Below are positions 3,594 through 49,196 of a DNA stretch of 53,689 bases, piece by piece. The stretch comes from a virus, in the IMG/VR virus record IMGVR_UViG_3300037313_001510, one strand, 5' to 3'. Position numbers and translations under genes: made by a program. The notes below the pieces were generated by a model. It had not been told where the DNA came from. It made no database searches and saw only the letters and a program-made list of their open reading frames with translations. Positions within the stretch are counted from its first letter, which is position 1; every line of letters begins with the position of its first letter.

Positions 3594-4580
3594 CTAGGCG
3601 GTGGGCGACACGCGCCGGGAGCCGAGGGACCGAATAGGCTTTTCGATCAGCTCATAGGACGCGCAGGCAATCAGCCAGGAGGACGCGCTGACGAAAATGA
3701 AGAGCGGAAGTGGCGAGACCTTGCCGGCCAGCACCAACACAATCGGATAGTGCCAAAGATAGATCGAGTAGGAAATCTCACCCGTATAAGCCAGTTGACG
3801 GGGCAAGAGCCCGGAATTTCGCGCCATAGCCGAGATCAGAACAGCGGCCAACAGATCGACCGCAAGAGGCGTGACTGTGAGCGTACTCGCCGAATAGAAC
3901 GGAGCCAAAGCAGCGATGACGATCAACGCCGCACCCGCCACGAATGCCCACCTTCTTGCGACCGCGAACGCCGCGAAAGCGCCGGCCGAGCCAATGGCCA
4001 GTCCGCTCAGATTGGTGTCGAAGCGATAGAAGGTCCGATAAAAATCGGACCAGATCAGTGCATCGGACCACCGCCATGCCGTTGCCAAAAACCAGAATGC
4101 CACCAGGATCAGGAACGCTTGACGACGCGGAAGACGTGCCAGCACCAGGATCGCCAGCGGCCAAACCAGATAGAAATGCTCCTCGACCGCAAGGCTCCAT
4201 GTGTGGATGAGGAAAAACGGCTCCTGCCAGAACGCTACCGAATAGTCGGATAGATATAGGCCCGCCAGGAGCACGTCGCGCGCTGCGTTGGTTACTGGGA
4301 AGACGAACGGCGAGACGAGCGCATAGGCGGCCAGCATCAACATCAGCGGCGGCCATAGGCGCCCGGCGCGTCGAAAATAGAACCTGACGAGATCGATGCC
4401 GCCGGTGCGGTCGAATTCTCCCAGCAAGTGGCCGGTGATTAAATAGCCCGACAGGACGAAGAACACCTCGACGCCAATCCATCCGCCTGCCGAGGCAAAC
4501 GGCAGGTGGTGGCAATGAAACGCCACGACCGAATACGCGGCTACCGCCCGAAGTCCGTCGAAAGACCTGTTACGGTCCAT
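3594..4580 (-). CDS. Acyltransferase family 3 integral membrane protein (O-antigen/polysaccharide O-acetyltransferase-like)
   Basis: N-terminal FDGLRAVAAYSVVAFH motif, VFFVLSGYLIT, and about 10 predicted TM helices. Confidence 0.8.
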   Translation of the reverse strand: MDRNRSFDGLRAVAAYSVVAFHCHHLPFASAGGWIGVEVFFVLSGYLITGHLLGEFDRTGGIDLVRFYFRRAGRLWPPLMLMLAAYALVSPFVFPVTNAARDVLLAGLYLSDYSVAFWQEPFFLIHTWSLAVEEHFYLVWPLAILVLARLPRRQAFLILVAFWFLATAWRWSDALIWSDFYRTFYRFDTNLSGLAIGSAGAFAAFAVARRWAFVAGAALIVIAALAPFYSASTLTVTPLAVDLLAAVLISAMARNSGLLPRQLAYTGEISYSIYLWHYPIVLVLAGKVSPLPLFIFVSASSWLIACASYELIEKPIRSLGSRRVSPTA

Positions 4581-4611: not shown

Positions 4612-6225
4612 TTAGCTGACGGCGTAAAAGCCAGTCTGCATCCACGACGCATATTCTGCGGCAAGCCACGCTGCGGAGAGTTCTCCATTGCGCAGATAGA
4701 TCATCCCTAGATCACCCTGAAAGATTTCGCCGCCAGATGATGGAGTTCCCGACCCGATGACGAAAGCATCGCCGTTTGCTCCAGGCCTTGCCGCATTGCC
4801 GGTATGGGTTCCGCGCAACACCCCGTCCTTGTAGATCTTTCGATAGGTCGTCCCATTGTAGACTTCATGCCCTCGATGCAGCCCATTGGCCTGGCCGCCA
4901 TCGCTGCTGTCGAGCCAGCTATCGGTGGAGTTCCATATCCCGTAATTGTTCGTTGCGCCGCGGTCGAGCAAGGTTGCCCTATTACTGCTGTCGCTAGAGT
5001 TGTCCGTATATGAGACCATCGACATATTGCTGCCGCTGGCAGACGGATTCGACGAGGCCCCAGCGGTCCAGGTGGTCCGCTTTGTAAGCCCGGTCACATA
5101 GAGATACCCGGTCGCATTGATGAGGTGAGCCCAGCCATTCGAAGCGAAGCTTACGCCGGTTCCGGAAATGGCAGCATCATGTCCAGACCCATTGCGGTTG
5201 GTGAGTCCGTTGATGATGACGACATCGTAATCTGCCCAGACCGCGTTCCGCCCATAGGTATCGGTCGCGGGCAACAGGTTGAGGCTCGAATCCCCATACT
5301 TGATCTTGAAGACCGTGTTCGATGCCGTCGCCACGTTCATTTTGACGAACAGTTCGCCGGTGTTGCCGGTCTTGTCGAACACCGTCAGATCGAAGGGCAG
5401 TTGCGTCGTGCCGTCGGCCGCGTAAGCACGTATGTCGCCACCGTCCGACTTGACCGCGCTCCAGAACCCGGACGGCATATCCGCCAGATTTACTCGAACC
5501 GGGAAATTGGTGAGGTCGGAACTGACATTTCCGGACGCGATGGTAATCGTCGATGTGAAGCCAACTGGTGCGGCCGCATCGGCGAACTGGTCAATGACGA
5601 TCGAGAACGGCCCGGCATCGGCGTTGTTGAACCAGAGCGCAATGCCGAAGGTGGTGACAGAGGACACGTTGGAGAATGGCGACGGTGTGACGCCGGTGAA
5701 CTCATCGGTCCAGGTTGAACCATCGGGACTGGTCTGGAACTTGTAGGTTGCGCCGTCGGCGGAAACGACCAGGCGAATCCAGTTCGGGCCGGCCTGCGTG
5801 CCATTGGCGGAAGCGCCGCCATCAGATGTGGTATGCCCGGTCTGGGCATTCCAGCCGTTCGGCGGTGTCCCGTAGACCTCATACTTGTGCAGCCCGGTCG
5901 AGCCATCCCCCCTGAGCCCGACGATGTGGAAGTCGTTGTTGTTCTTCAGCCCAAAGCCGACCATTGCCAGCTTGCCCTGCTGGGCGAGTTGCTGGAACTG
6001 CGGCGTGTAGCGGAAGGTGTATTGCCGGCCGGCGGCAATGGTCGCCAGCGGATAGACGAACTTGCCGAATGATCCAGCCTTGACCTTGCCCTTGATGGTC
6101 GTGTTGCCGGAGGCGGTCGTGGTGACGACGGGCTGGTCGACGAAGCCGCCATCGCTCGAGCCGCCGCCGCCGCCAGCGACAATGGCGGCGCCAGGGCCAG
6201 ATCGCCCGATCATGTGGGGAAACAT
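4612..6225 (-). CDS. Tail fibre / receptor-binding candidate with DUF2341-like and LamG (ConA-like) domains, 537 aa
   Basis: Central segment FPVRVNL...GGDIRAY..DGTTQLPFDL...ELFVKM...IKYGD resembles DUF2341. The C-terminal segment GDAFVIG...FQGDLGMIYLRNGELSAAWLAAEY resembles a LamG jelly roll. It is the last structural gene. Confidence 0.65.
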   Translation of the reverse strand: MFPHMIGRSGPGAAIVAGGGGGSSDGGFVDQPVVTTTASGNTTIKGKVKAGSFGKFVYPLATIAAGRQYTFRYTPQFQQLAQQGKLAMVGFGLKNNNDFHIVGLRGDGSTGLHKYEVYGTPPNGWNAQTGHTTSDGGASANGTQAGPNWIRLVVSADGATYKFQTSPDGSTWTDEFTGVTPSPFSNVSSVTTFGIALWFNNADAGPFSIVIDQFADAAAPVGFTSTITIASGNVSSDLTNFPVRVNLADMPSGFWSAVKSDGGDIRAYAADGTTQLPFDLTVFDKTGNTGELFVKMNVATASNTVFKIKYGDSSLNLLPATDTYGRNAVWADYDVVIINGLTNRNGSGHDAAISGTGVSFASNGWAHLINATGYLYVTGLTKRTTWTAGASSNPSASGSNMSMVSYTDNSSDSSNRATLLDRGATNNYGIWNSTDSWLDSSDGGQANGLHRGHEVYNGTTYRKIYKDGVLRGTHTGNAARPGANGDAFVIGSGTPSSGGEIFQGDLGMIYLRNGELSAAWLAAEYASWMQTGFYAVS

Positions 6226-17459: not shown

Positions 17460-17909
17460 TCAGAGGGTGGCGGGATCGAGGTAGTAGGGAATGGCGAAGG
17501 CCACGCCCATTTCGCCGAGCATAGAGCGGCCCCAGGCGAGCGAGGTCTGGGTGGAGTGAAGGCGCCCGCCGAGCCGGTTGGTGGTCAGCGCCATCAGGTC
17601 GGCGTCGGTCGCTATGGCTTTGATCAGCGCAGCGCGATGGCCGTTTAGCACCGTGCCGACATCTTCAGACTTCTCCGGCAGCACGATCAGCATCTGCGGC
17701 GTCATGGTCATCCGGCGCGGCCCGCGTGAGCCGCGGCTGTTCGGGTCATTCTCGTCGCCCATTTCGTCGCCATCCAGAATCAGGATCGCCGGCAGGTTCG
17801 CCTCGGGGGGGCGCATGTTGTTGCGATATACCGCTTTGATGCCTCTGGTCGTCTTGAAGGTCTCGGCGATTGCTACGAGGCGCTGCAGGATGGCTTCGCG
17901 GGTATCCAT
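17460..17909 (-). CDS. Tail terminator / tail completion candidate, 149 aa
   Basis: Lies immediately upstream of the tail tube gene. Confidence 0.5.
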   Translation of the reverse strand: MDTREAILQRLVAIAETFKTTRGIKAVYRNNMRPPEANLPAILILDGDEMGDENDPNSRGSRGPRRMTMTPQMLIVLPEKSEDVGTVLNGHRAALIKAIATDADLMALTTNRLGGRLHSTQTSLAWGRSMLGEMGVAFAIPYYLDPATL

Positions 17910-18265
17910 CAGCGGGCCTCAGTCAGGATGAGCAGGATCTCGCCGTCCACCTCGCCGTTCGGTGACGGCCGGAAGGCGTGGTTCTCGACGGTCCAGGTCT
18001 TGCCGTTCATTTCGAGCGTGGCGCCGTGCAGATCGGCCTTGTCGATGTTCGCGATGTCGCCGGCACGCACAGCGGCCGCTGGCGAGATCGTCTCGACCTC
18101 GGCATTGAACCGTCCGCCTGAACTGCCCGTCACGATGCCGGCCGTCTTATCGATCGCCCTGAGTTCGATCACCGCGCCGTCGGTGCCGGGCAGCGTCAGC
18201 ACGGCGGCGACGCCAAAGCCGGCTGTGCCATACATGGGTCCGTAGAGAAGCGAGAGATCATACAT
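17909..18265 (-). CDS. Head-tail joining (neck) protein candidate, 118 aa
   Basis: Called from position only. Coupled to 17460..17909. Confidence 0.5.
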   Translation of the reverse strand: MYDLSLLYGPMYGTAGFGVAAVLTLPGTDGAVIELRAIDKTAGIVTGSSGGRFNAEVETISPAAAVRAGDIANIDKADLHGATLEMNGKTWTVENHAFRPSPNGEVDGEILLILTEAR

Positions 18266-18290: not shown

Positions 18291-18953
18291 CTAAACGCCC
18301 CACACCGCTGCCTGGTCGGCGGCGCGCACGAAGATCATGTTGGAGCCGCACCAGGAATGCGGGATGAAGCCCTTGGTCGCCATCAGCGCAGCGAGCTCGT
18401 GGCTGGTATCGCCACCGCCGCAATCGGCCTCGACGATGACGACGTGCGGCGGATGAGCGCCGAAATCGGTGACGCGCAGCACGTCGATATCGAGGCCTTC
18501 GATGTCGAGCGAGAGCAGATCGGGCCAGATGCCGTTGCAGAACATGCCGTCGACGATCTCGTTCAGCGTGTAGACGACGACGGTCTCGGTGACGGTGATG
18601 CCCAACGTCATCGCCGTTGCCTTGTCGAAGGTGAACCGGCCGGGATCGGCGGCGACGTGATAGAAGGGCAGTTCGCCCGAGACCGGCGCTACGCCAGCAC
18701 GAATGTTGGTGTCCTCCGGCCTCGCCTTGCGGAAGGCTTCGAACAGCGCCGCGTTCGGCTCGACATTGATGCCGCGCGAGCCGCGCTCATAGAGCAGCGC
18801 CGTGTTCGACAGGTCGAACGGATGATAGGCGCCGACATCGAGATAGGACGGCTTTTCGATGCCGAGCCGCTTGAAGATGTTGAGCACGGCAAGATCGTCG
18901 CCATGCTGCGCATAGGTGCGGGAGCCGAACCACTGGTCGCGATGGCCGGTCAT
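18291..18953 (-). CDS. FkbM-family SAM-dependent methyltransferase, 220 aa
   Basis: Start reset to MTGHRD. Motifs YLDVGAYHP ... GINVEPNAALFEAF ... LSLDIEG are typical of the FkbM family. Confidence 0.75.
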   Translation of the reverse strand: MTGHRDQWFGSRTYAQHGDDLAVLNIFKRLGIEKPSYLDVGAYHPFDLSNTALLYERGSRGINVEPNAALFEAFRKARPEDTNIRAGVAPVSGELPFYHVAADPGRFTFDKATAMTLGITVTETVVVYTLNEIVDGMFCNGIWPDLLSLDIEGLDIDVLRVTDFGAHPPHVVIVEADCGGGDTSHELAALMATKGFIPHSWCGSNMIFVRAADQAAVWGV

Positions 18954-19198
18954 CAGATCGCGGCCTTTGACGCTACATGGCGACTGATGGCTTTGACGCG
19001 AACGCGCGGCTTTGTAGCGGGCGTCCATCCACGCAAAAGCGTATCCAGCACTCGACGACCCATCTCGCGCTCGGTGTATTCCTGCATGCGACACGGGCAG
19101 ACCGGATCGCCGTTACGAGGCCCGGTGCAGAAACATGCTCGCGGGGGCGGCTTTGGCCGATCCCGAAGCGACATCGCCTGCGGCTTGGGCACCTTCAT
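18953..19198 (-). CDS. Small basic Cys-containing protein, 81 aa
   Basis: Start reset to MKVPKPQ. Contains CFCTGPRNGDPVCPC. Coupled at both ends. Confidence 0.5.
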   Translation of the reverse strand: MKVPKPQAMSLRDRPKPPPRACFCTGPRNGDPVCPCRMQEYTEREMGRRVLDTLLRGWTPATKPRVRVKAISRHVASKAAI

Positions 19199-19539
19199 AG
19201 CCTGTCCTCCGATAACTGCTTGGCGAGGGCGGCCCATTCGGCAGCCGAAAGTCGAACGGTGACGGTTTCGCCGCAATAGGTCTGCTGGCAATCAAGAGGC
19301 GCGGCCTGCATCTTCCCCTTTTGAGGGGCCAAGTTGCAGTAGTTGTTGCAGTTCTCATCGCCGGGCGTGCATCGGCCGGGCCTGCCCTTGTCGGAAGCGT
19401 GACCACAGATGTAGCAGCCGTCCACCGTCTTCGGATCACCGCGCACCGTGATGACAACGGCACCGTCGTCGGCGATTGTGACATTGATATAGCCCGGGAA
19501 AAGCTGATCAAGTTTCGTGTAGGCAACGACATTGCTCAT
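19195..19539 (-). CDS. Cys-rich protein, 114 aa (7 Cys)
   Basis: Start reset to MSNVVAY, giving an ATGA overlap with the stop of the 915-aa gene. Confidence 0.55.
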   Translation of the reverse strand: MSNVVAYTKLDQLFPGYINVTIADDGAVVITVRGDPKTVDGCYICGHASDKGRPGRCTPGDENCNNYCNLAPQKGKMQAAPLDCQQTYCGETVTVRLSAAEWAALAKQLSEDRL

Positions 19540-22283
19540 GGCGCTCTCCCCTCGGCGATCGCCGCCTCGATCCAGTTGAAATGCTCGCCGATGACCTTGT
19601 GGTGGCCCTCGACGTCGGTCAGGTCGGCATGGCGCGATTTGTGGACCTCGCAAGCCTCGATCTCCTCGAAACCGGCGAAGAACAGGCAGGCCTCTAGCAG
19701 CGCCTGCGACCAGATCGCCTTGTGGCCATGCGCGTGGATGATGGCGTGCATGGCGCCGCGGCGGTCGGCCGATGGCGCCCATTTGTGCGCGAAATCGAAA
19801 TAGTCCTGGTCACCGCGCCGCCAGATATTTTCGAGGCTTGGCACGCAGATCCGGATGACGCCGCCCGGCTTCAGCACGCGCCGGCATTCTGCGAAGAAGC
19901 GCAGCGCGGCGTGATAGTCGACATGCTCGACGACATGCTCGGCATAGATGAAATCTGCATGATTGTCGGGAAACAGTAGTCGCTTCTCGATGTTGACCTC
20001 GGCGTCGAAGTTCAGCCAGCCGTCGAGCCTGTTGGTGCCGCAGCCGAAGTTCAGCTTGACGGCGTCCTCGACCGGCCGCACCGGCGGCTCCTGGGCCACT
20101 GTGGAGGCCACGAAGGCGTCATAGGCTTCCGGGCTTGCATGCGTGACCCAATCGAGCGCGGCGACGTTCTCCGCCGTGATCTGGCCCTTGTCGCCGCGCT
20201 CGGCCTTGAGAGGCAGCATCACCAGGTCATCGCCGAGGATGTCGAAGATCGCCTGCTCGGGATAGGGTTTCGGCTGGCGGTTCCACCAGTCGTATTTTTC
20301 GATGAACTTCGACTGCCAGAGATAGTCGACGCTGAAGAACATCAGGCCGGTCTCGGCCCAACCCTTCTCCTTGCGCTTGGTGCCTTCGACCGGGACCGAG
20401 GCCGCCTTGATACCTGCCGCCATCATCTGGCGGATGATCGGCAGCACCGGCCGCTTGAGCAGGCTGTCGCCCTCGATATGGGCGACATAGTCGTATTGCC
20501 CGTCGATCGCGATCTCCAGGCCCTTGCAGAAGGCCCTGCCCCAGCCGTCGCGGCCGCCGCGCGCGAGGTGGCCGATGTTGTCTGGGAAGGCGTATTTCTC
20601 CGCGCCCTGCTCGACGGCAAGCAGCGGCACCGGCGAGGCGCTGTCGACCAGCAGGAGATGGACCGCCGCGCCATTGATCTGCCGGTGCAGCACTTCCCAT
20701 TGAGCAGCCAGGCGCTGCTTGTCCGGCGTGTCGGAATAGACCGTGCCAAACACCAGCACCTTCGGCTGCTTGCCGTGCGCCGCCGCGAAGGCCTCGACCT
20801 TCGGCAGCGCCTCAGCCACGTCAATGGTCTTGTCGCACTGGTGATGACGGTCGAAGCACTCGCAGGGCTTCACCGGCTCGATCGGCAGCGTCGGCGCCAG
20901 ATGCGCGCCGACCACGTTGGTAAAGCGGAAGCTCTCGTTGCCGCCATAGACGACGATGTTCGGCGTGCCGACCGCCTGCGCCAGGATCGGCGTGAAGCCG
21001 GCATTGCCGAAGACCAGAGAGGCCTCGGCGAACAGCCCGGCCAGCGTCTCGAAATCGGCCTCGCCATGGTGCAGCTTCAGGTCGGCGTCCTGTTCCTCGC
21101 CGACGATGTGCTCGCCCTTCTGCGTTAGGTCGCAGACCGAGACCGTGAAGAACCGGTCCTTGATCGAGCGATAGAGCGCCGCGTAGGCGTCGGGATTCGG
21201 CGCCCGCGACGGGCACGGCCAGGTGCCGTTGAGCACGATCGGGCGATAGACCATGATCGGCCTGCCGCCCGTATCGCCCACGATCGCCCGAGCCGCTTCC
21301 CGCCATTGAGGTTTGACTGGCAGCGAGAAGTCCGCGCGTTCCGGCAACGTCAGGCCGACCGAGGCGAACATGGCGTTGAGCAGCGTGCCGTGCTTCTTGG
21401 TCTGGGCGTGATCGTAGCCGATTTTCCGATCGTGCTGCCGATTGCCCTTGCCGCCGCTGACGCCATTGCCCCTGTCGCGGATGCGCGGGTCGAGATGACT
21501 GGACACCAGAGTGACCTTGAGCCCTTCGGCGATCAGGTCGTGATACATGGCGGTGTAATAGGTCAGCAGCTCGACACTGCGCGTCTTCATCAATTCGCGC
21601 ACGACAGCGCGCTGAACGATGCAATCCCCCATACCGTACATGCTAAGCACGGAGATCGACGGCCTCGCCGACACGCGCTGCAGCATTGCGATCACCTCTT
21701 GAAAAGGAACTTTGGGCCAGACGTCGATGGCGCTGTCGGGGTTGGCGTTGATGACCTCGACGCCGCGCTTTGCCACCGATGGCGCGATGGCGCGGAACTC
21801 GGCGGCGTGCCTGTCGAAGCAGCCATTCACCAGCGGCCAGGGATACGCGATATCGTGATGATGCCGGCGGCCCTGGATGATCTGGCCATCGACGCCGAGC
21901 AGGACGATTCTAGACGCCCCGAAATGCACCGCCAGGTTGATGGCGCCGGTGACGCTCGTTGTTTCCAGCGCCAGCCGATCGGGCGTTTCCGCGATGCCCT
22001 TGCCCGGGGCGATTTTCTTCAAATTCTTGATGCGCTTGTCCGACCAGCCGCAAGTGGTGACGATCAGCCCGCCGAAGTCAGGATGGAACTTCGTCCACCA
22101 CCTTGTGTCGGCGAAGAACAGCACATCGGCTTGCGGATAGGTCTGCCAGGCCGAGTTGATGGCGATGACCCGTCGCCCGCAGAGGAGCGACAGGTCTTGG
22201 CCGAGAACGGACGGGCCGCCGGCCAGAATGATTGCGGTCTCGCCCCGCCATAGCGGCGGGGCGGACCAGTTCGGCGGCGACAC
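19536..22283 (-). CDS. Four-domain transferase fusion, 915 aa: MptE/Maf(DUF115)-like + GT9-like + GT-A-like + class I SAM methyltransferase
   Basis: GTG start 2 nt after the capsid stop.
- Domain 1 (about 21675-22247): ETAIILAGGPS ... VIAINSA ... LFFADTRWW.
- Domain 2 (about 20865-21659): GMGDCIVQRAVVRELMK ... LAGLFAEASLVFGNAGFTPILAQAVGTPNIVVYG.
- Domain 3 (about 20130-20768): LLLVDSAS ... AHIEGDS.
- Domain 4 (about 19545-20063): KLNFGCGTN ... LKPGGVIRICVP. Confidence 0.7.
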   Translation of the reverse strand: MSPPNWSAPPLWRGETAIILAGGPSVLGQDLSLLCGRRVIAINSAWQTYPQADVLFFADTRWWTKFHPDFGGLIVTTCGWSDKRIKNLKKIAPGKGIAETPDRLALETTSVTGAINLAVHFGASRIVLLGVDGQIIQGRRHHHDIAYPWPLVNGCFDRHAAEFRAIAPSVAKRGVEVINANPDSAIDVWPKVPFQEVIAMLQRVSARPSISVLSMYGMGDCIVQRAVVRELMKTRSVELLTYYTAMYHDLIAEGLKVTLVSSHLDPRIRDRGNGVSGGKGNRQHDRKIGYDHAQTKKHGTLLNAMFASVGLTLPERADFSLPVKPQWREAARAIVGDTGGRPIMVYRPIVLNGTWPCPSRAPNPDAYAALYRSIKDRFFTVSVCDLTQKGEHIVGEEQDADLKLHHGEADFETLAGLFAEASLVFGNAGFTPILAQAVGTPNIVVYGGNESFRFTNVVGAHLAPTLPIEPVKPCECFDRHHQCDKTIDVAEALPKVEAFAAAHGKQPKVLVFGTVYSDTPDKQRLAAQWEVLHRQINGAAVHLLLVDSASPVPLLAVEQGAEKYAFPDNIGHLARGGRDGWGRAFCKGLEIAIDGQYDYVAHIEGDSLLKRPVLPIIRQMMAAGIKAASVPVEGTKRKEKGWAETGLMFFSVDYLWQSKFIEKYDWWNRQPKPYPEQAIFDILGDDLVMLPLKAERGDKGQITAENVAALDWVTHASPEAYDAFVASTVAQEPPVRPVEDAVKLNFGCGTNRLDGWLNFDAEVNIEKRLLFPDNHADFIYAEHVVEHVDYHAALRFFAECRRVLKPGGVIRICVPSLENIWRRGDQDYFDFAHKWAPSADRRGAMHAIIHAHGHKAIWSQALLEACLFFAGFEEIEACEVHKSRHADLTDVEGHHKVIGEHFNWIEAAIAEGRAP

Positions 22284-22285
22284 GA

Positions 22286-23317
22286 TCAGGCGGAGCGCTT
22301 GCCGAGCATCAAGGTCTTCGGACGCGTGCAGATCGACAGCACATTGGACTGGCTGTCGAGGTTGACGCCCTTGCCGTTGTCCATCAGGAACTGCTTGGCA
22401 TACATGCGCTGGCCGATGGTGTTGACGGTCTCCATGTAGTCGCCCGGGGCGAAATAGGAGCGGAACAGGTTGGGCACGCCGATCGGCGCCAAGTGGCATT
22501 TGTCGGGGTTGACGAAGGCCGTATTGCCAACGGCGCCACGATAGTTTTCCCAGACGATGCCGCCGAACTCGAAAGCACCGTAGATCTTGTCGCCATTGGG
22601 CAGCACGTAGCCGGCGCGCAGCACGGCGGCCATGTCGGTGTTGAGGAAGCTCTTCACCACTTCGACATTGCCAAGCAGATCGTCGAAGAAATCACTGCCG
22701 CATTCTGCAAGCACGCCTTGATAAGGCAAGCCGCCGAGATTGTCGGCGATCTTGCGGACAACGCCGGCGCACTTCTTGCGCAGCGCGCCGGAAACCGGAT
22801 TCGCGTTGGCGAGATCGAAGGCAATTTCGGTTTCCTGGGAGACGCCGAACGCGTCGAAGAGGTTGACAGTCGATCCGTCGGCATAGGTGACGATGCCCTT
22901 GTAGGCGCCGATGCGGGCATATTCGATGGTCGCTTCCATCGACTGCGAATGGACAGCGAGCCTGTCGGCAACCTTGCCCATCACGGTTTCGACTTCGGAC
23001 ATCGAGCCCCAGGCGCGGACGTTCTGCACCTCATCGGCCATGACCGCGTCGTTGATCTCGAAATGCGGCACGACGAACGGGCGCACGGTGCGCAGCGGCT
23101 TGTCAAGGGTTTTGCCGGGGCCGCCGCGCGCCGTCGGCTCGATCAGGCTGAGGATGCCGTCGCGCTCCTCGATGACTGCGGTGGTGGTGGTGATGCCGCT
23201 TTCCTGAAACAGGCCGAGCTGACCGAGACGACCGGGCACGAACTTCAGCTTGTTGATGGAGTCGGTGAGCGAGACGACGCTGAAGGCATCGTCATTGAAA
23301 ACGTCGAGCATGGGCAT
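22286..23317 (-). CDS. Major capsid protein, lambda gpE family
   Basis: N-terminus MPMLDVFNDDAFSVVSLTDSINKLKFVPGRLGQLGLF is typical of the gpE family. Lies after the decoration gene. Confidence 0.85.
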   Translation of the reverse strand: MPMLDVFNDDAFSVVSLTDSINKLKFVPGRLGQLGLFQESGITTTTAVIEERDGILSLIEPTARGGPGKTLDKPLRTVRPFVVPHFEINDAVMADEVQNVRAWGSMSEVETVMGKVADRLAVHSQSMEATIEYARIGAYKGIVTYADGSTVNLFDAFGVSQETEIAFDLANANPVSGALRKKCAGVVRKIADNLGGLPYQGVLAECGSDFFDDLLGNVEVVKSFLNTDMAAVLRAGYVLPNGDKIYGAFEFGGIVWENYRGAVGNTAFVNPDKCHLAPIGVPNLFRSYFAPGDYMETVNTIGQRMYAKQFLMDNGKGVNLDSQSNVLSICTRPKTLMLGKRSA

Positions 23318-23377
23318 GATGGTGGTCCTTCAGAACGCCGCTCTCAAAAGCGGGCTGTTGCGTGGAAAATGCCCGCC

Positions 23378-23707
23378 TTAGCGGACGATGATGTGCAGCG
23401 TGGCGAGACCGGCGAGCGCGCCAGCGTCCAGCGCCCCGTCGGTGGCTTCGGTCGAGGTCAGCATGTTGCCGTTGACCTCGGCGAGGCGGGCGATGTAGGC
23501 GACCAGGTCGCCGTCCTCGGCGGCATTGATGGCGATGCCGACGACAGTGCCGGAGCCGTCGTAGGAGACCAGCGTGCTGGCGGTGATCTTGACGACCTCG
23601 CCGGCCTTGAGCGTGCCGCCGGCGACAAGGCTTTCGCGCGAGATGTGGCCGTCGCCTTCCGAGATGATGAATTCAGCCGTGTGACGGGCTTCGGTGAGAG
23701 CAGTCAT
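23378..23707 (-). CDS. Head decoration protein (gpD-like), 109 aa
   Basis: Supported by size, position immediately before the capsid gene, and the AEFIISEGDGHISRE motif. Confidence 0.65.
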   Translation of the reverse strand: MTALTEARHTAEFIISEGDGHISRESLVAGGTLKAGEVVKITASTLVSYDGSGTVVGIAINAAEDGDLVAYIARLAEVNGNMLTSTEATDGALDAGALAGLATLHIIVR

Positions 23708-23764
23708 GGGAAAAGTTCCTTCGTGTTGGATCGACTGGAGAAGCGCCGCGACGGGCGCGGTTGC

Positions 23765-24253
23765 TTACTTCTTGCCGAAACGCGCGTTGACGCGCTCGAT
23801 GGTCTTGTCCCAGGCGTTGCCGTCGGGAGCGCCACCATCGGCATGCGTACGCAGCTCGCGGCCGGAAGCGTCGGCCTTGCCGGCGGTCACCGCGGCCTGG
23901 ACGTCGGCGAGCGACTTGCCTTCCTTGATGAAGGCCGAGGCCTTGGCCGACTGGTTGCCGATATGGCAGGTGGCGGCGATGTTGGCGTCGACATCGCGCG
24001 TCGCCGTGATGGCAGCCGCGACAGCGGCGGCGACCGCTTCGGCCTTTGCCTTCTCGGGATCTTCCGGCAGCGAGGCCGCGAAGGCAGTGAGATCGGCATC
24101 GATCTTGGCGCCGTCCTCATGGAGCGCGGCCAGTCGAGACGTTTGTTCGGCGGTAATACTGCCTTCCGCCTTGTCGATAGCGGCGCCAATCGCGTCCGCC
24201 TCGGTCTTCAGCGCGCGCCTCTTATCGAGAAGCGCCATAAGCACTTTCTGCAT
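23765..24253 (-). CDS. Scaffold-like head assembly protein, 162 aa
   Basis: Ala/Glu/Lys-rich helical protein between the protease and decoration genes. Confidence 0.5.
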   Translation of the reverse strand: MQKVLMALLDKRRALKTEADAIGAAIDKAEGSITAEQTSRLAALHEDGAKIDADLTAFAASLPEDPEKAKAEAVAAAVAAAITATRDVDANIAATCHIGNQSAKASAFIKEGKSLADVQAAVTAGKADASGRELRTHADGGAPDGNAWDKTIERVNARFGKK

Positions 24254-24341
24254 TGTCTGTTCCTTTCGAGGTTATTTTCCGGGAGGCGATACGATTCGTG
24301 ATGCCGTACCGCGCCCGGAGCGCCGACGGCCGAAACTGGGG

Positions 24342-29986: not shown

Positions 29987-30664
29987 CTATTCCGATTTCG
30001 CGATCTGCGCAAGATCGAGCGTCACCAACGCCTCGCGACCGAACAGCCAGGTCAGCACGCGCACGTGTCGGCTGCCGATATAGCCTTCGAGCACGCCGCG
30101 CATCAGGGCCAACGGTCCATCCTCAATGACGACATGATCGCCAGGTTCGATAGCGAGCTCAGCCTTGCGCCGACGCTTCGCATCGACGGTCTGGTCCAGC
30201 CATCCCTTGTCGATCAAGCCCTTGACCTTGTTGATCTCTTTGATCCCTATCGGGCACGGTCCACCCATGCCGCATACGGCGCCAGAGACGAAGTCGACGC
30301 CGCGCAGCCACGACCAAGTCTCGGCTATCGGGGCGACGAAGACGAACACATAACCCGGAAAGGCAGGCACTTCCTTGACGATGCGAGGCGCCTTGTAGCG
30401 CGCGACGCGCCGCGCCGCCTCGACCTTCTTGCACGGCGCCCATGCCTCGAAGCCCGCCTTGAGCACTGAGTTTTCCACAGCGTTTTCGCTGTTGGGCGCG
30501 ACCGTCAGGGCAAACCATTTGCGCTCAGGTTCATCGATCGCCCGTCGCAACAGTTCCGCCCTCACCCGATTCTTCTCGCGCTGAACATCGCCAGCACGTT
30601 CCGCCCTGCTAGTATCGATCTTCACCGAACCATCGTTAAGCCGCTTCACGTCCACCGCCATCAT
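29987..30664 (-). CDS. NusG/RfaH-family transcription elongation/antitermination factor paralogue
   Basis: NGN-like segment WFALTV...VPAFPGYVFVFV...WSWLRGVDFVSG and KOW-like segment IEPGDHVVIEDGPLALMRGVLE...VRVLTWLFGRE. Confidence 0.8.
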   Translation of the reverse strand: MMAVDVKRLNDGSVKIDTSRAERAGDVQREKNRVRAELLRRAIDEPERKWFALTVAPNSENAVENSVLKAGFEAWAPCKKVEAARRVARYKAPRIVKEVPAFPGYVFVFVAPIAETWSWLRGVDFVSGAVCGMGGPCPIGIKEINKVKGLIDKGWLDQTVDAKRRRKAELAIEPGDHVVIEDGPLALMRGVLEGYIGSRHVRVLTWLFGREALVTLDLAQIAKSE

Positions 30665-31856
30665 TGGTCTTGTCCTCGCTTGCCTTGACCGCCTGTTCGA
30701 ATGCATCCAGTCCGTCCGGTCCGCCGACCGGGAAATACACCACCGGCATCTGGCCGGGATCGGGCAACCACGGCCAACCGCGCTTCTCGTGCTCGGCGAG
30801 CCAGAGTTGCCATATCTCGCCGCGCACCGGCACGGGCTCCATCAGCGCCGCCAAGGCCTCGAGCTCCGGCGCGACCGTGATGCCGCGCCGGCTCTCCGCC
30901 GCCTCATGCATCCGGTTGACTGATGGCCAGCCATGCGCGGCCTGCCTGGTCAGCCGCGCCTGCCTGCCCTTGGCGTCGTCCTGCGCCAGCAAGGCCGCCA
31001 TGAAGCCCTTCGCCGGAGGCGCTTCAGCCGGCGGCGAGGTGAGCAGCATGCGCAGCCTGACCGCGCTCCAAACCGGACCGAAGGGCGGCGCAACGATCAC
31101 TGTCGGCTTTTCTTCAGCCGGCTCCGGCACGTCGCGCCAGAGCTTCTGTCCGAAATAGCTCGACGGTGCCGGGATGTGGGTTTTCTTCTGCGCCTTGAGC
31201 AGCGCCAGCCAATGCGGGAATAGCCTGATCGCCTCGACACGATCGACCGCGTCGAGGCCGAGCCACACCTTCAGCGCCGGTTCCTTCGGCATGCCGGCGA
31301 AGCCCGGCCAGTCCTTCAGCAGCGCCCAGCCGTCGCGCTCGATCTTTTTGCGATCCTCATCCCCGTCTCTCTCGCGCGCTTGCGCGCCCGGTTGAGAGGT
31401 TCCAAGGACGGTTCCATTGGACGGTTCTTCTATAGAGGGCTGCTGCTGGTTGCCGGTAGGACGGTGCCCATTGCCGGTAGGTTCGGCGTCTGGTTGCCGG
31501 TTGGTCCTACCGGCAATTTCTGCCGGTAGGACATCCGAATCCGCCTCGCCGCCGCGCAGCCGCTCTGCCCCGTCCAGCACCTTGGTACCGAGCTTGAGCA
31601 TGATCAGGTCGGTAGCCCGCGCGCCTTTGGCGCCGGTGCGGCGCGAGCGCTCGATCAGGCCCCAGTCCTCGAGCCTCTGCAGCCATTCGCGCGCCGTGCG
31701 TTCAGACACTTCGGCATCGGCGGCGAGCTGCTCCTGGCTTGGCCAGCACTGCGCCTTTTCCGGGTCGGCATAGTCGCCGAGGCACAGGATGATCGACTTC
31801 GCCGCCGGCGAGCCGAGCCGCTGTTCCTTCGCCCATGCTGAGGCTTTCCAGCTCAT
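30636..31856 (-). CDS. Replication initiator-like protein (N-terminal winged HTH), 406 aa
   Basis: N-terminus AKSIILCLGDYAD...SQEQLAADAEVSERTAREWLQRLEDWGLIER. An iteron cluster lies in the linker-coding region. Confidence 0.65.
   Translation of the reverse strand: MSWKASAWAKEQRLGSPAAKSIILCLGDYADPEKAQCWPSQEQLAADAEVSERTAREWLQRLEDWGLIERSRRTGAKGARATDLIMLKLGTKVLDGAERLRGGEADSDVLPAEIAGRTNRQPDAEPTGNGHRPTGNQQQPSIEEPSNGTVLGTSQPGAQARERDGDEDRKKIERDGWALLKDWPGFAGMPKEPALKVWLGLDAVDRVEAIRLFPHWLALLKAQKKTHIPAPSSYFGQKLWRDVPEPAEEKPTVIVAPPFGPVWSAVRLRMLLTSPPAEAPPAKGFMAALLAQDDAKGRQARLTRQAAHGWPSVNRMHEAAESRRGITVAPELEALAALMEPVPVRGEIWQLWLAEHEKRGWPWLPDPGQMPVVYFPVGGPDGLDAFEQAVKASEDKTNDGGGREAA
31448..31530. repeat. Iteron cluster, candidate origin of replication
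   Basis: TTGCCGGTAGG-type 11-mers at 31448, 31469, 31492 (variant) and 31518, plus an inverted copy at 31504-31514. An adjacent GGACGGTTC x2 lies at about 31406-31428. Confidence 0.7.
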
Positions 31857-32746
31857 ACGAACATCCCCACCTGCTCGTCGTATCGCTCACGCGTCTTAGC
31901 CGACCTGCGATAGTCGGCAAATGGCGTCTTTCGCCAGATCATCGGCGAGTTCGCCCAGCGAGCCACGTCGCGCAGGAGCTGCTCATTCCAGTCGAAACGT
32001 GGATGCGGCCGGCGCTCAAGGGAGTTTAGCTTCATGAACGGCTGGACGTGCGGTTCGCCGCCCCAGGCCATCACCTCGCCGATGCGCTGCATGCATGCTT
32101 CGAAGGGTTCGTTCCCGATCAGGACATAGACGCGTTTCTGTCGGGGCGACACACCGGCAAGCATGCGCATGACACGCTCGACAAACGGACGTTCCGCCAT
32201 GTCGTCATACGCAAACCGCCACGGACCTCGATTGATGGTCTTCCATCGCGCGTAGACGTCATCGTCGAACGTGCGTGGCTCGAATCCGCTGTTGGCATCG
32301 AGCAGAGGCACGCCGGCCGACATGTAGCGCGCCACGATGTGTTCCTGATAATCAGCGGGCAAGGCCGATAGGTTGTTGTCGCACAGCACAGGCCGAACCG
32401 GGAAATCCGGCAGCAGCGTGAACGCCTTGCCCTCCATCTTCGGCACGATGCAGAACCAGCAGCCGACCGGACAGCCACGGCTGGCGATCGTCGCCATCGG
32501 ATTGTGCCGTGCGACGACGTCGTCGATCGAACCACCGATTTCGGCCACATCGGCAAGGAAGTGCTTGCGCGTGAAGACGCCAGGGCCGCCAACCCGCACG
32601 TTCAGGCCATCAGCGCGATGCCAGCAGGCGCGCTGATAGGCGTCGTTAAGACGCCACGTGAAGGCCACTGAAATAAAGGCGGTGTCGCCTTCGATCCATT
32701 CGGCAATACCGCCCGACCAACGGCCAAGATCATAACCGTTGCTCAC
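31853..32746 (-). CDS. Radical-SAM-like enzyme, 297 aa
   Basis: CxxxCxxC cluster ASRGCPVGCWFCIVP (codons at 32450-32473), followed by VLCDNNLSAL, which resembles the DDNF motif of Elp3/B12-type radical SAM enzymes. Confidence 0.6.
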   Translation of the reverse strand: MSNGYDLGRWSGGIAEWIEGDTAFISVAFTWRLNDAYQRACWHRADGLNVRVGGPGVFTRKHFLADVAEIGGSIDDVVARHNPMATIASRGCPVGCWFCIVPKMEGKAFTLLPDFPVRPVLCDNNLSALPADYQEHIVARYMSAGVPLLDANSGFEPRTFDDDVYARWKTINRGPWRFAYDDMAERPFVERVMRMLAGVSPRQKRVYVLIGNEPFEACMQRIGEVMAWGGEPHVQPFMKLNSLERRPHPRFDWNEQLLRDVARWANSPMIWRKTPFADYRRSAKTRERYDEQVGMFV

Positions 32747-34686
32747 TCCGCCGCCTCCAGCACCAGCTCACGGCGCACGTTGCATTGTGCCAAAAGCTCG
32801 ATCATGCGCGGCGGCACGCTGTTGCCGACTAGGTGATATTTCTCCGTCTTGGTCAGCCGGCGCTTCCTGCCGTCGATCGTGATCTCGGCCGGCAACGCGC
32901 CAGGCCTGAAGCCATGCGCGGCCGCGCCCTCCTCCGGCTCCAGCATGCGGATGCCGATGTCGTCGATGTAGTGGCGCACGCCCTTGACGATCACCTCGAC
33001 GAGGCCGTAGCGCGCCTTGCCGGTCAGCGCGCCGAGCGGCTGGCGCACGTCGTCGTCCTGCTTGCCCGAGCCGAAATAGTGCTGCAGGAAGCCGAGGATC
33101 AGATGAGCATGGCTGCCGCCGGCCGCGATCGTCGCCAGCGGCTCCTCGATCGGCCGCCCATCCTGGTTGGTGCCATGCAGGTTGCCGAGCGTCGCCGCGA
33201 CGACGCCCTGCGTCGAGCCGAGCGTGACGATGGTCGACACAGGATCCTCGGCCGAGCGACCCGGCGCGCCGGTGTTATGCTGCGCCAGGAAGGCCGCCAC
33301 AAGCGCCGCCTTGCTGCCGCCGACCTGCGTGCCCGCCGGCTCCTCGAGGTCGAGCACGCGCGGCGCCTGCCCTTCCCGCTCGCCATAGCCGGTCTGGATC
33401 AGGCTGGCCGCCACCACCGCATGCCGCGGCGCGCCGGCCATGACCGTGTCGAGCGGCTCGGTCGGCATGGTGCCGACGCCGTTCTGGTTGAATTTCGTTA
33501 GATGCGCGGCGACCAGCAGCCGATCTTCCTTGCCCGTCGTCGTGCCGAGCGGCTCGGCGAGGTCGCGCGGTGCCGATTGTGCGGCACGCCCACCGGCGCC
33601 GACGATGGTCGCGCCAAGCACCGCCATCCCCGACGATGTGTGCAGCGTGTTGATCGGCTCTTCGGCCGAATTGACGCCGTTGCGCGCCGCCGCGCTCTGC
33701 TGGTCCGTGCGAATCAGGACCGGCGCCACCACGGCCATCTCGCCGCGATGCGCGGCGGTCAGCGTGCGCAGCGGTTCCGCCGCGTCGTGCACGCGGTCGT
33801 CGCCGGCATGGGTGATCGGCACGATGAACGGCTTTGCCGCGTCGACGACGTAGCGCATCACGCCGCGCGCCGTGCGCCGCAGCGTCGCCTCGGCCAGCGG
33901 CTTCTTGCGCCCGAAGATCGACTTCACCGGCAGCGACCAGTCGATGATCGTGTGCGCGCCGACCCACGGCTTCAGGCCGAGTCGCTTCGCCTCCTTACGC
34001 GGCGCATGCGTGCGCGCCGGCCACACGATCGACCGGCCATCCGCCTGGGCGATGCCGAAGAAGCGTTTCCTGATCGTCGGCACGCCATAGTCGGCGCAGA
34101 CCAGCACGCGGTGCTCGAAATTGTAGCCGAGGCCGCGCATATGCTTCAGCCAGGCGCGCCAGATCCGGCCCTTGTGGCGCGGGTCCGGGATCAGCCATTG
34201 CTCGGCGACCGGCACCCGCTCGCCCTTGGCCGCGACTGACCCGTCGAGCCGCAGCACGCGCCCGCTCGCCGGGTCGCGCTTGGCGATCAGCGGCCCCCAG
34301 GTGGTGATCTCCTGCACATTCTCCATGGTGATGGTCTCGGGCCGCACGGTGCCCGCCCAGCGGCAGATCACCCACGCCAGCGAGCGCCGCCGCTTCGACA
34401 CCGGCTTCGAGCCCTTGGCGACGGAGAAATGCGTGCAGTCGGGCGAGGCGTGCATCGCGCGTACGCCGCGCCCGGCAGTCACCTTGCGGGGATCGGCCTC
34501 GAACACGTCGCAGCGCAGGTGCCTGGTGTGCGGATGCCGCCTCTCGTGCACAGCGACCGCGACCGGATCGTGGTTGATGGCGACATGGACATGGAAGCCG
34601 GCATCCTCCAGCCCGTCGCAGCCACCGCCCATGCCGGCGAACAGCACGACCGTCATGCGATTGTCGAGCGAAAATGGTGCGTTCAT
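32743..34686 (-). CDS. DNA (cytosine-5) methyltransferase with about 8 tandem TRD-like modules, 647 aa
   Basis: Motif I LFAGMGGG, IV SPDCTHFS, VI ENV, VIII TIRKRFF, X GNSVPP. The variable region carries repeated E-P-x-x-T-(L/I/V) modules. Confidence 0.85.
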   Translation of the reverse strand: MNAPFSLDNRMTVVLFAGMGGGCDGLEDAGFHVHVAINHDPVAVAVHERRHPHTRHLRCDVFEADPRKVTAGRGVRAMHASPDCTHFSVAKGSKPVSKRRRSLAWVICRWAGTVRPETITMENVQEITTWGPLIAKRDPASGRVLRLDGSVAAKGERVPVAEQWLIPDPRHKGRIWRAWLKHMRGLGYNFEHRVLVCADYGVPTIRKRFFGIAQADGRSIVWPARTHAPRKEAKRLGLKPWVGAHTIIDWSLPVKSIFGRKKPLAEATLRRTARGVMRYVVDAAKPFIVPITHAGDDRVHDAAEPLRTLTAAHRGEMAVVAPVLIRTDQQSAAARNGVNSAEEPINTLHTSSGMAVLGATIVGAGGRAAQSAPRDLAEPLGTTTGKEDRLLVAAHLTKFNQNGVGTMPTEPLDTVMAGAPRHAVVAASLIQTGYGEREGQAPRVLDLEEPAGTQVGGSKAALVAAFLAQHNTGAPGRSAEDPVSTIVTLGSTQGVVAATLGNLHGTNQDGRPIEEPLATIAAGGSHAHLILGFLQHYFGSGKQDDDVRQPLGALTGKARYGLVEVIVKGVRHYIDDIGIRMLEPEEGAAAHGFRPGALPAEITIDGRKRRLTKTEKYHLVGNSVPPRMIELLAQCNVRRELVLEAAE

Positions 34687-35231
34687 CGTTCCGCCTTCAG
34701 CCATGCGCCAAAGCTCGCGCGCAGCGCTTTCCACGCGTGCGCCGCCCTGGCGTCTTCGTTGAGTTCCGCGCGCGAGGTCACCCCGAGGATCGAGCGCACC
34801 TTCTGCGCCGCGCGCTCATTGTTCAGCGGCGGCTCGAGCCCGTGCCGCTCCGCCAGGAATTGCTGGAAGCGCCGCTCCGCGCATTTGATCGCGCATTCGG
34901 CGGCGAAATCCTTCGGGTCGCGCACAGGCGCGTTACTTGCCTCGTCGAAGGCCTGGCCGGCCTTCAACTCGCGGATCGCGGCAAAGGCCTGGTCGAGCAG
35001 GGTGAGCAGGAAGCCGACATAGTCGGGCGCATCGGCCATGAAGATCACTTCCGCAACGCTCGCCGCATCGAACCGTGCCAGCACGAAGCGCTCGCCATTG
35101 CCGGCCTCGGCCTCGATCAGCGCGCCGTTCTCGTCATGCGCGCGCGTCCACCGTGCCGGCGCGATCGCCGCATAGGCCGTGCGGACCGCCTTGAGACGGG
35201 CAGCATCGGGCGAGCGCGCGGCGGCATTCAT
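34683..35231 (-). CDS. Hypothetical protein, 182 aa
   Basis: Start reset to MNAAARS. ATGA-coupled on both sides. Confidence 0.55.
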   Translation of the reverse strand: MNAAARSPDAARLKAVRTAYAAIAPARWTRAHDENGALIEAEAGNGERFVLARFDAASVAEVIFMADAPDYVGFLLTLLDQAFAAIRELKAGQAFDEASNAPVRDPKDFAAECAIKCAERRFQQFLAERHGLEPPLNNERAAQKVRSILGVTSRAELNEDARAAHAWKALRASFGAWLKAER

Positions 35232-35572
35232 GGCAACGCCTCGGCCTTGCCGTTGAACCATTCATAGAAGCGCGATGGTCCGCATGTGCAGCGCCAGCCG
35301 TTCTTGCGGAGCGTCGCGAGAAGACACTTGGCCTCGGCGCGGGGAAGCTCATATCGATTCCAGCACCAGTTGCCGAACCAGTCCTTGGAACCGACGATCT
35401 TGAAGTTTCGCCTGTCGATGCGAATGAAGCCAACACCCGTCGAAAAGGAAAAGCTCTGCCAGCCCGGCGACTCCAGTTCGATGTCGCCATAGGTCGCCAT
35501 CATGGCCTTGCCGGAAAACAGGCCGTTATCCGGATCGTTGCAGGCAAAATCAATGTAGGCTGTCCGCTTCAT
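35228..35572 (-). CDS. Hypothetical protein, 114 aa
   Basis: Start reset to MKRTAYIDF. ATGA-coupled. Confidence 0.55.
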   Translation of the reverse strand: MKRTAYIDFACNDPDNGLFSGKAMMATYGDIELESPGWQSFSFSTGVGFIRIDRRNFKIVGSKDWFGNWCWNRYELPRAEAKCLLATLRKNGWRCTCGPSRFYEWFNGKAEALP

Positions 35573-36072
35573 CCGCGCTCCTCCGTCAGTTCGCGAAACA
35601 CCGACTTGCCGCGCCAGGTCAGCTTCCAGTGCCTGTTCTTCAGCCGGCCGCCGACTTCCTCGACCAGGCCGCGCTCGACCAGCACCGGCAGGATCGAGGC
35701 GACATGGTTCTGCGAGCCCTTGCCGAGGATCAGGCCGATCTTGGTCGTCTGGTAGCGGAACACGCCGTCGTCGTCGGCATGGAAGCCGAGCACATAGATC
35801 ACGCCGCATTGAAGCTCTGTCAGCGTGCCCTCGACATTCTGGAAGGCCATGCGGCCCTGGCCGACCGCCTCCGGTTCGGGTTCATCGGCGATCGGCGCCA
35901 GCAGCTCGTCGGCCAGCTCGCCGTAGATGACGCGGTGCATCAATTGCGCCACCATCGCCGGCGCATGGTCGCCGCGAAGTGCTGCCAGCTCGCGCACCGC
36001 CTCGGCGAGGTTCCCGGGCAGCGCCACATGCAGTGGCGGCGGCGTGACGGCGCGGCGCATGGCGAGGGTCAT
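35569..36072 (-). CDS. Winged-helix (MarR-like) DNA-binding protein candidate, 167 aa
   Basis: Start reset to MTLAMRR. C-terminal segment TKIGLILGKGSQNHVASILPVLVERGLVEE. Confidence 0.5.
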   Translation of the reverse strand: MTLAMRRAVTPPPLHVALPGNLAEAVRELAALRGDHAPAMVAQLMHRVIYGELADELLAPIADEPEPEAVGQGRMAFQNVEGTLTELQCGVIYVLGFHADDDGVFRYQTTKIGLILGKGSQNHVASILPVLVERGLVEEVGGRLKNRHWKLTWRGKSVFRELTEERG

Positions 36073-49152: not shown

Positions 49153-49170
49153 CCGGCGCGAAAGCGCCGG
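49153..49170 (+). promoter_or_regulatory. GC hairpin with GAAA loop downstream of VR (DGR target-recognition hairpin; possible terminator)
   Basis: CCGGCGC-GAAA-GCGCCGG, 1 nt after the target stop and 22 nt after the VR end. Confidence 0.7.
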
Positions 49171-49196
49171 TAGAACCGACAGCCCGGAAAATCGCC

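Follow-up and report, generated by a model that had tools for sequence, protein, structure and literature searches.

The 53,689-nucleotide stretch held in IMG/VR as virus record IMGVR_UViG_3300037313_001510, called the window here in its full length and the frame for all coordinates given below, carries a cassette of predicted sugar-handling enzymes (18291-22283) between its major capsid gene and its neck genes, and both the cassette and the head and neck genes that flank it lie on the minus strand. The capsid gene (22286..23317) encodes a 343-aa major capsid protein of the lambda gpE type (PF03864, E 3e-94; phrog_29, E 3e-53) and stops with a TGA at 22288-22286, 2 nt ahead of the start codon of the cassette, a GTG at 22283 that opens a 915-codon open reading frame (ORF) ending at 19536. 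This start had been proposed in an initial annotation made from the letters alone, and both the coordinates and public gene calls bear it out; there is no alternative ATG, GTG or TTG start in frame nearby, and no Shine-Dalgarno sequence precedes the GTG. Three smaller genes follow through overlapping stop and start codons, as first described, the overlaps being ATGA, ATGA and TGATG: a 114-aa Cys-rich protein with seven Cys (19195..19539; Shine-Dalgarno sequence GGGGAG), an 81-aa protein with four Cys and a CxC...CxC motif (18953..19198; GGAGGA) and a 220-aa FkbM-family methyltransferase (18291..18953). The island ends 25 nt before a gpFII-like head-tail joining (neck) gene (17909..18265; PF05354, E 3e-6).

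Gene order around the cassette is that of a lambda-like late operon: ahead of the island come the genes for both terminase subunits (small, then large), the portal, an S49 protease, a 162-aa protein, a gpD-like decoration protein and the capsid, and after it those for gpFII, major tail protein and tape measure. The G+C content at third codon positions of the 915-aa and FkbM genes (0.85) is close to that of the capsid gene (0.83), with lower values for the 114-aa (0.72) and 81-aa (0.68) ORFs. Independent gene calls, available for public contigs of identical sequence, start the 915-aa gene at this GTG too and include the 114-aa and FkbM genes, with the 81-aa ORF uncalled; a capsid-to-enzyme fusion by frameshifting was set aside, given that these calls use the GTG. 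A 689-aa ORF antisense to the capsid and decoration genes (22232-24301, plus strand) is a high-G+C artefact, and ORF length alone is no proof of coding in this window. Mesorhizobium genomes encode the closest homologues of the 915-aa protein, with identities of up to 86%, and the carrier of the cassette is a temperate lambda-like siphophage or prophage of a Mesorhizobium-type host. Since a megablast search of the 11-kb head region against GenBank phages returned no match, it has no close cultured relative.

Promoter-like and terminator-like signals in the island were no more frequent than in shuffled sequence, a comparison to be read with the reservation that the sigma-70 consensus may not suit rhizobia, and the cassette is thus most simply co-transcribed with the head genes, in keeping with the embedding in a late head-neck operon that had been claimed for it. 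On the same count, and with the same reservation, we rejected the idea that the island is a self-contained "moron" equipped with promoter and terminator. Stoichiometric late expression, the other part of that claim, did not fare as well: a GTG that lies 2 nt after the capsid stop and lacks a Shine-Dalgarno sequence implies termination-reinitiation, and so less protein than capsid, as befits an enzyme.

The four-domain composition ascribed to the 915-aa protein stood up well. An AlphaFold model of the full-length protein, built with 111 homologues, has a mean predicted local distance difference test score (pLDDT) of 93.6, fold searches agree with it on four domains, and all of the motifs first quoted are present (AGGPS at residues 21-25, HIEGDS at 602-607, LNFGCGT at 744-750 and LKPGGV at 804-809). 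With the full model as query, Foldseek searches of the PDB returned GT9 heptosyltransferases, the protein heptosyltransferase TibC, GT-A enzymes and many S-adenosylmethionine (SAM) methyltransferases. Sequence searches gave a far sparser picture, in that Pfam recognised the C-terminal methyltransferase alone, no Pfam glycosyltransferase model reached E <= 0.01 in the protein or in a scan of 52 homologues, and profile searches against PDB sequences, for the whole family and for domain 1, found methyltransferases or noise and no glycosyltransferase. The glycosyltransferase domains are therefore recognisable by fold comparison only, so that the domain-wise profile and structure searches initially recommended did find both enzyme types, the glycosyltransferases by structure alone. 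Among the PHROGs, residues 20-201 match phrog_4603 ("alpha-2,3-sialyltransferase", E 5e-31) and residues 212-489 match phrog_6804, of unknown function (E 3e-19). Transmembrane segments are absent from the 915-aa protein, and its catalytic-type motifs (GxGD220, E604-G-D606, GCG and PGG) are invariant, or nearly so, across the 111 homologues.

Domain 1 (residues 1-205; 21669..22283) is a Rossmann domain resembling MptE/DUF115 and Cst-II (GT42) and a putative sugar transferase. Modelled alone, it reached a pLDDT of 97, and the fold so predicted is one that it shares with MptE and Cst-II, the Foldseek scores being modest: E 2.6e-4 for the archaeal MptE pyrophosphokinase (HPPK) 8sd5, and a TM score of 0.53 with a probability of 1.0 for Cst-II 2x61. 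Residues G23, S25, D59, G130, D132 and H143 are invariant. Against PF01973, the family of the Maf enzymes, domain 1 scores 19.1 bits where the gathering cut-off is 34.6, below what family membership requires, and sub-threshold matches to the same model occur in 60 of 89 domain 1 homologues at E <= 0.01 (best 1.9e-5).

Domain 2 (residues 206-495; 20799..21668) is, in the model, a two-Rossmann GT-B fold of the GT9 heptosyltransferase kind, closest to WaaC/WaaF, and its Foldseek matches are led by WaaF 1psw (E 2e-8; TM score by target 0.57), ahead of TibC 4rap (E 2e-6) and the GT9 protein 3tov (E 6.5e-6), with a probability of 1.0 for the two GT9 enzymes. Its G217-x-G219-D220 is invariant in 111 of 111 sequences and forms part of a "GMGDCIV" segment (family consensus GxGDxLH) that aligns with the "SMGDVLH" beta1-loop of WaaC, in whose "GD" motif lies the catalytic Asp13. 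Towards its C-terminus lies a conserved nucleotide-sugar motif, "GTPxIxVYGG", which aligns weakly with WaaC and WaaF; in a visual alignment of the C-terminal motifs, the "DTG"/"DSG" of these enzymes (Asp261 in WaaC) reads "NAG" in domain 2. Comparison of the family with the Escherichia coli enzymes by hhalign was confined to the C-terminal motif and weak (WaaC, E 0.0018, probability 15%; WaaF, E 0.011, probability 4%), and PF01075 found no match in the query at E <= 1, nor in the query and 52 homologues at E <= 0.01. Near the end of the C-lobe is a Cys/His site in which C474 is conserved in 111 of 111 sequences and C483 in 109, position 476 being Cys in 100 and His in 9, and position 481 His in 91 and Cys in 16. 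This C474-x-C476...H481-x-C483 arrangement is a putative metal knuckle that recalls, but does not copy, the iron finger of TibC. Homologues carry the Joint Genome Institute (JGI) product name "ADP-heptose:LPS heptosyltransferase", where LPS is lipopolysaccharide.

Domain 3 (residues 496-735; 20079..20798) is a GT-A-like domain with alpha/beta secondary structure in the AlphaFold model and conserved motifs "VDSxS" and "HIEGDS", within which E604, G605, D606 and S607 are all conserved and E604-G-D606 is a putative equivalent of the DxD motif. The GT-A matches from Foldseek were to an alpha-1,3-galactosyltransferase (2jck, E 4e-5) and GfsA (8yrl), and their assignment to domain 3 is an indirect one because query ranges were not printed with them; in BFVD, the fold matches included phage proteins named "Glyco_tranf_GTA_type" and also giant-virus glycosyltransferase-methyltransferase fusions. 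Pfam found no family for domain 3 in the query and 52 homologues. Since none of its glycosyltransferase models matched in that same set, domains 2 and 3 both appear to be new at the level of the sequence family. There is less to argue about in domain 4 (residues 736-915 and the stop codon; 19536..20078), which is a class I SAM methyltransferase with a GxGxG-type motif I: PF08241 matches at E 3.9e-9 (37.5 bits, cut-off 21.2) and, in a scan of the query and 52 homologues, was found in 33 of 53 sequences; the family retains the GCG and PGG motifs, and Foldseek places it with SAM methyltransferases. The separate methyltransferase had been correctly called as FkbM-type, matching PF05050 at E 8e-13 and 49.3 bits, above the Pfam cut-off of 22.7, with TIGR01444 (E 5.5e-9) just under its own at 36.6 bits against 37.7. 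Close relatives have a copy of it, 70-85% identical, after the fusion, and at four other loci (L044, L047, L055 and L080) copies 46-51% identical lie between the domain 3 and domain 4 genes, a distribution that marks the FkbM gene as a conserved partner of the 915-aa fusion.

The two small genes between the fusion and the FkbM gene are a different matter, and the coherent four-gene island first envisaged resolves into two conserved enzyme genes and two small genes specific to the lineage. Both are present only in an identical phage and absent from all cassettes of close relatives, which have another, unrelated small ORF in the slot between the fusion and the FkbM gene. As both have homologues elsewhere, they are real genes, the weak codon signal of the 81-aa ORF notwithstanding. 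The 114-aa family has 61 representative homologues at E <= 1e-3, one of them (L101) adjoining a Peptidase_M15_4 endolysin gene, with A6, T8, P15, R33, C45, C57 and C64-N-N-Y-C68 invariant (C...C...CNNYC), and its invariant Cys probably form a metal site. The 81-aa protein has five homologues, 53-61% identical, among small accessory genes on Mesorhizobium phage contigs (including L099 and L100), and at L100 the gene lies two genes downstream of one for an anti-defence protein of the Acb2/Tad1-hairpin type. A role for either protein as metal cofactor or enzyme partner was rejected, as both are absent from every related cassette and have homologues in unrelated phage contexts; to judge by this distribution, they are lineage-specific mobile cargo in a hypervariable slot, outside the enzyme system.

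Enzymes at this position of the genome had been thought unusual, which they are not. Relatives of the 915-aa fusion occur in at least 202 IMG/VR viral contigs; in three Pseudomonas phages in culture, D3, PAJU2 and Psp6, separate genes for domain 1, domain 2 and a methyltransferase occupy the corresponding place; many rhizobial prophages have domain 1 as a separate gene of ~200 aa; and a domain 1 homologue on its own is found in P1 (PmgO/PmgP region), P7 (HdmB) and Caulobacter and Brevundimonas jumbo phages. The architectures include domains 1 and 2 together, domains 2, 3 and 4 together, the full four-domain fusion and fully split versions, and the conserved unit is therefore a set of five enzyme modules (domains 1, 2 and 3, FkbM and domain 4), variably fused or split. 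In split cassettes, radical SAM/SPASM enzymes were seen between the domain 2/domain 3 and FkbM genes (L055, 8659-9498; L080, 9594-10454), and proteins with F5/8 type C or ConA-like lectin domains after the cassette (L020, 12717-13712; L055, 11688-12767).

A census of neighbours at about 60 non-redundant loci, covering two genes on each side, found that the most frequent kind of neighbour on the upstream side is a major head protein, the matches being to phrog_10 (18), phrog_29 (8), phrog_617 (6) and phrog_4523 (6), where one protein may match more than one PHROG family; other upstream neighbours were head proteases, decoration proteins, adaptors and portals. Downstream, there were methyltransferases (Methyltransf_24, 12; Methyltransf_23, 5; TylF, 2; Methyltransf_3, 2), connectors (gp6-like, 8; head completion, 4) and, occasionally, PfkB kinases (2), polysaccharide pyruvyl transferases (2), radical SAM/SPASM enzymes and a UDP-glucose dehydrogenase. 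Two relatives have fuller sets of sugar-nucleotide genes: downstream of the homologue in L009 come genes matching rfaE domain I (E 1.5e-85), rfaE domain II (E 9e-29) and ADP-heptose 6-epimerase (E 1.8e-79), and downstream of that in L051, which as fetched is without domain 1, genes for an NDP-sugar (nucleoside diphosphate sugar) dehydrogenase, a LegB-like dehydratase, a LegC/PseC-family aminotransferase and a NeuD-family acetyltransferase. At the same time, five of the six loci fetched for their related gpE-type capsids (43-69% identical) lack the cassette, which makes it accessory; the sixth (L015) has a domain 1 homologue only, ~2.7 kb downstream of the capsid.

We regard it as highly probable that the cassette truly is a set of glycan-building enzymes. 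The sugar-nucleotide, pyruvyl transferase and methyltransferase genes beside its relatives indicate that it handles activated sugars and makes a modified glycan, and because these neighbours include ADP-heptose synthesis genes, as in L009, ADP-heptose is the most likely donor for domain 2. Donor sugars in general, the order of the reactions and the acceptor we infer. In the scheme that fits best, the cassette would be transcribed late, together with the head genes, and reinitiation after the capsid stop would yield the 915-aa fusion in catalytic amounts at the time of capsid synthesis. Three soluble, cytoplasmic transferase modules, namely domain 1, domain 2 (probably using ADP-heptose) and domain 3 (metal- and NDP-sugar-dependent), would then work in series on a short oligosaccharide, to be O-methylated and capped by the two methyltransferases, class I domain 4 and FkbM. 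The likeliest acceptor would be one of the proteins from which the virion is being assembled, probably a head protein (the capsid or the gpD-like decoration protein), which would thereby gain a coat of methyl-capped glycans.

Precedents for such a scheme exist in other systems. In PBCV-1, the fusion protein A064R has two glycosyltransferase domains and a methyltransferase domain that build the glycan of the major capsid protein, and A111/114R has three glycosyltransferase domains (PMC7826918). As in A064R, several glycosyltransferase domains and a capping SAM methyltransferase are here joined on one viral polypeptide, and the enzymes of both viruses are cytoplasmic and independent of host glycosylation machinery, in our case as a proposal. 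The differences are also plain: PBCV-1 is a eukaryotic giant virus with N-linked glycans and a proven target, whereas the target of the cassette is inferred; the glycosyltransferase families differ, with no sequence similarity detected between them; and the cassette adds to the A064R plan a GT9-like module, an MptE-like module and a second (FkbM) methyltransferase. Closer in virion type are the mycobacteriophages (Che8 and relatives), whose own glycosyltransferases are described (Freeman et al. 2023, as cited in PMC11256854) as proposed or shown to decorate capsid proteins, forming a glycan shield. Like the Che8-type phages, the carrier of the cassette is a tailed phage with its own predicted glycosyltransferases; unlike the cassette in its head operon, the mycobacteriophage genes are located towards the right-hand genome end (PMC11256854). 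The Che8-type host is an actinobacterium, unlike the host of the cassette, and similarity to the glycosyltransferases of mycobacteriophages went undetected, no record of such a phage being named among the tblastn matches in the phage collection.

For the chemistry of domain 2, the bacterial autotransporter heptosyltransferases (BAHT) TibC and Aah are instructive, being cytoplasmic GT9-like GT-B enzymes that O-heptosylate protein with ADP-heptose and have a Cys-coordinated metal finger in the C-lobe, its iron ligands in TibC being Cys339/342/358/370 (PMC4358343). Domain 2 resembles TibC in fold, and its conserved CxC...HxC site, close to where the C-lobe ends, may be a counterpart of the finger, but this site comprises three Cys and one His within 10 residues where TibC has four Cys within 32, the domain lacks the N-terminal beta-barrel of the BAHT enzymes (in the model's secondary structure, the Rossmann beta1 comes directly after domain 1) and it has phage head and neck genes for neighbours and no autotransporter substrate. 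WaaF scores above TibC as a fold match, and with WaaC and WaaF domain 2 has in common the N-terminal beta1-loop "GDxLH" and, by weak alignment, the C-terminal "G-x-P-x-I/V-x-x-Y-G"; unlike them, it is set in a phage head operon and not an LPS core locus, fails to match PF01075 and has "NAG" for "DTG"/"DSG". Domain 1 has the fold of Maf/DUF115 and Cst-II with sub-threshold PF01973 matches, differing from Maf in consisting of the ~200-aa core only and falling below the Pfam threshold. Maf enzymes glycosylate a cytoplasmic structural protein before its assembly, which is the logic proposed for the cassette, and like Maf systems the relative L051 (without domain 1 as fetched) has sugar genes of the Leg/Pse type.

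Whether the acceptor is indeed a virion protein is a call that could fall either way. The capsid-adjacent position in unrelated phages, the cytoplasmic location and the glycosylation of cytoplasmic proteins by enzymes with related folds (TibC/Aah; Maf) all argue for it, and the dispensability of the P1 domain 1 homologues PmgO/PmgP, which are non-essential and not needed for plaque formation, fits an accessory decoration; consistent with it, too, is a separate membrane acyltransferase of the phage, of the kind that converts the host surface. Virion-protein glycosylation, which had been suggested from the outset, is plausible and the best reading available. Several observations count the other way. 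In an alignment of gpE-type capsids (eight with the cassette, five without and one with domain 1 only, further downstream), no cassette-specific insertion or Ser/Thr-rich tail was seen; the comparison with phages lacking the island, advised at the start, provided the contrasting loci and no such capsid difference to go with them. The cassette lies behind at least four unrelated capsid families, and a capsid target would therefore require one enzyme family to recognise very different sequences; the capsid-adjacent site may simply tolerate insertions. As for the enzymes, the closest solved relative of domain 2 is an LPS heptosyltransferase and not a protein glycosyltransferase, the hhalign support for it against WaaC and WaaF is weak (probability 4-15%), sequence does not place domains 2 and 3 in known glycosyltransferase families, and domain 1, with an HPPK as its top Foldseek match, could be of the pyrophosphokinase type and not a transferase.

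Some of these same points favour remodelling of the host envelope, in which the LPS core, O-antigen or exopolysaccharide would be altered, for example with a methylated heptose, blocking superinfection or the re-adsorption of progeny to debris. The best structural match of domain 2 is WaaF of LPS synthesis, homologues bear the JGI heptosyltransferase name, the phage is a temperate one in rhizobia, and the capsid alignment is without an acceptor signature; moreover, rhizobial surface glycans are often methylated, and FkbM-family enzymes methylate glycans. Yet we consider this explanation unlikely. The island is translationally coupled inside a late head-neck operon and has no promoter-like site of its own, its proteins have no membrane segments, the cassette also occurs in phages of non-lambdoid type and in jumbo phages that are presumably virulent, and what surrounds it at the ~60 loci is genes for heads and connectors instead of integrases or tail fibres. 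In addition, the window already has a typical converter. A membrane protein of the Acyl_transf_3 family (3594-4580, minus strand; E 8e-27), the usual kind of host-surface converter, is encoded beside tail-fibre-like genes (4612-6225, with a weak DUF2341 match) and a phage lysozyme (2716-3297), a type and position that are usual for a lysogenic-conversion O-acyltransferase of host surface polysaccharide.

Hypermodification of the phage DNA, with sugars, possibly heptose, placed on a modified base before or during packaging, is a good deal less probable. Phage GT-A and GT-B enzymes are known to add hexose, N-acetylhexosamine, heptose or Kdo to 5-hydroxymethylcytosine, and some of their clusters are near structural genes (bioRxiv 10.1101/2023.12.21.572611). 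The early region of the window (31853-39111, minus strand) also encodes a 663-aa C5 cytosine DNA methylase (32743-34734) and, at 37684-39111, another DNA methyltransferase (phrog_799), together with a radical-SAM-like protein (phrog_9298; 31853-32746). However, these DNA methylases are 10-17 kb away from the cassette in the early region, among the genes scanned around them there is no Pfam or PHROG match to a 5-methylcytosine dioxygenase or other hydroxymethyl-base enzyme, and the cassette shows no detected sequence similarity to DNA glycosyltransferases and keeps company with sugar O-methyltransferases, pyruvyl transferases and head genes, not with pairs of C5 methyltransferase and TET enzymes. 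Poorest of all is the chance that these are structural or morphogenetic proteins, in which degenerate enzyme folds would serve the head as accessories or in assembly, since the "structural protein" label on the domain 1 homologue ORF010 of PAJU2, the name "putative morphogenetic function" of the P1 homologues and the position amid head and neck genes are set against active-site-type motifs invariant in more than 100 homologues, five different enzyme folds that travel together, nucleotide-sugar synthesis genes alongside in relatives and the non-essentiality of the P1 homologues.

Elsewhere in the window, a plus-strand region (47459-52366) is a candidate diversity-generating retroelement: it encodes a reverse transcriptase (49538-50911; RVT_1, E 9.5e-15) and, just upstream of it, a protein in which the Mtd second domain is recognised (48088-49152; PF21916, E 2e-11). 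Beyond the early genes of the phage is a regulator of the Ros/MucR family (45862-46308, plus strand; E 7e-49), typical of Rhizobiales, and a NusG-like protein is encoded at 29987-30706. No tRNA gene was found in the whole window and no edge of the prophage came to light, and none of the genes scanned matched an integrase family.

To return to the glycosylation of virion proteins, the recurrence of the cassette allows a broader proposal, which we advance tentatively and with somewhat more doubt than conviction: that Gram-negative phages have a widespread, unrecognised virion-glycosylation system, encoded next to the capsid gene, that puts methyl-capped glycans containing heptose or nonulosonate on head proteins. 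Its core would be the MptE-like transferase, the GT9-like enzyme, acting as a protein heptosyltransferase, and one or more O-methyltransferases, with the GT-A, FkbM, radical-SAM and sugar-synthesis genes as options; its components are present in phage D3 (domain 1, domain 2 and the methyltransferase) and P1 (domain 1 only) and abundant in rhizobial prophages. Searches of the literature turned up no description of the cassette, of capsid glycosylation in proteobacterial phages or of a function for PmgO/PmgP, only the result on non-essentiality in P1, and the initial remark that such decoration is undescribed for rhizobial phages holds, as no paper of that kind came to light. Particle glycosylation by a tailed phage's own enzymes is, to our knowledge, established so far only in some mycobacteriophages. 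If the proposal is true, two families of glycosyltransferases that are recognisable by structure and novel in sequence (domains 2 and 3) would be added, and PHROG families 4603 and 6804, as well as PmgO/PmgP of P1, would gain a function. Sugar-coated virions would then be common among phages of Proteobacteria, including those of soil and symbiotic rhizobia and the well-studied D3, which would matter for particle stability, for adsorption to host polysaccharide, for how phages used in therapy are recognised by the immune system and for the reading of cryo-EM maps with unexplained densities.

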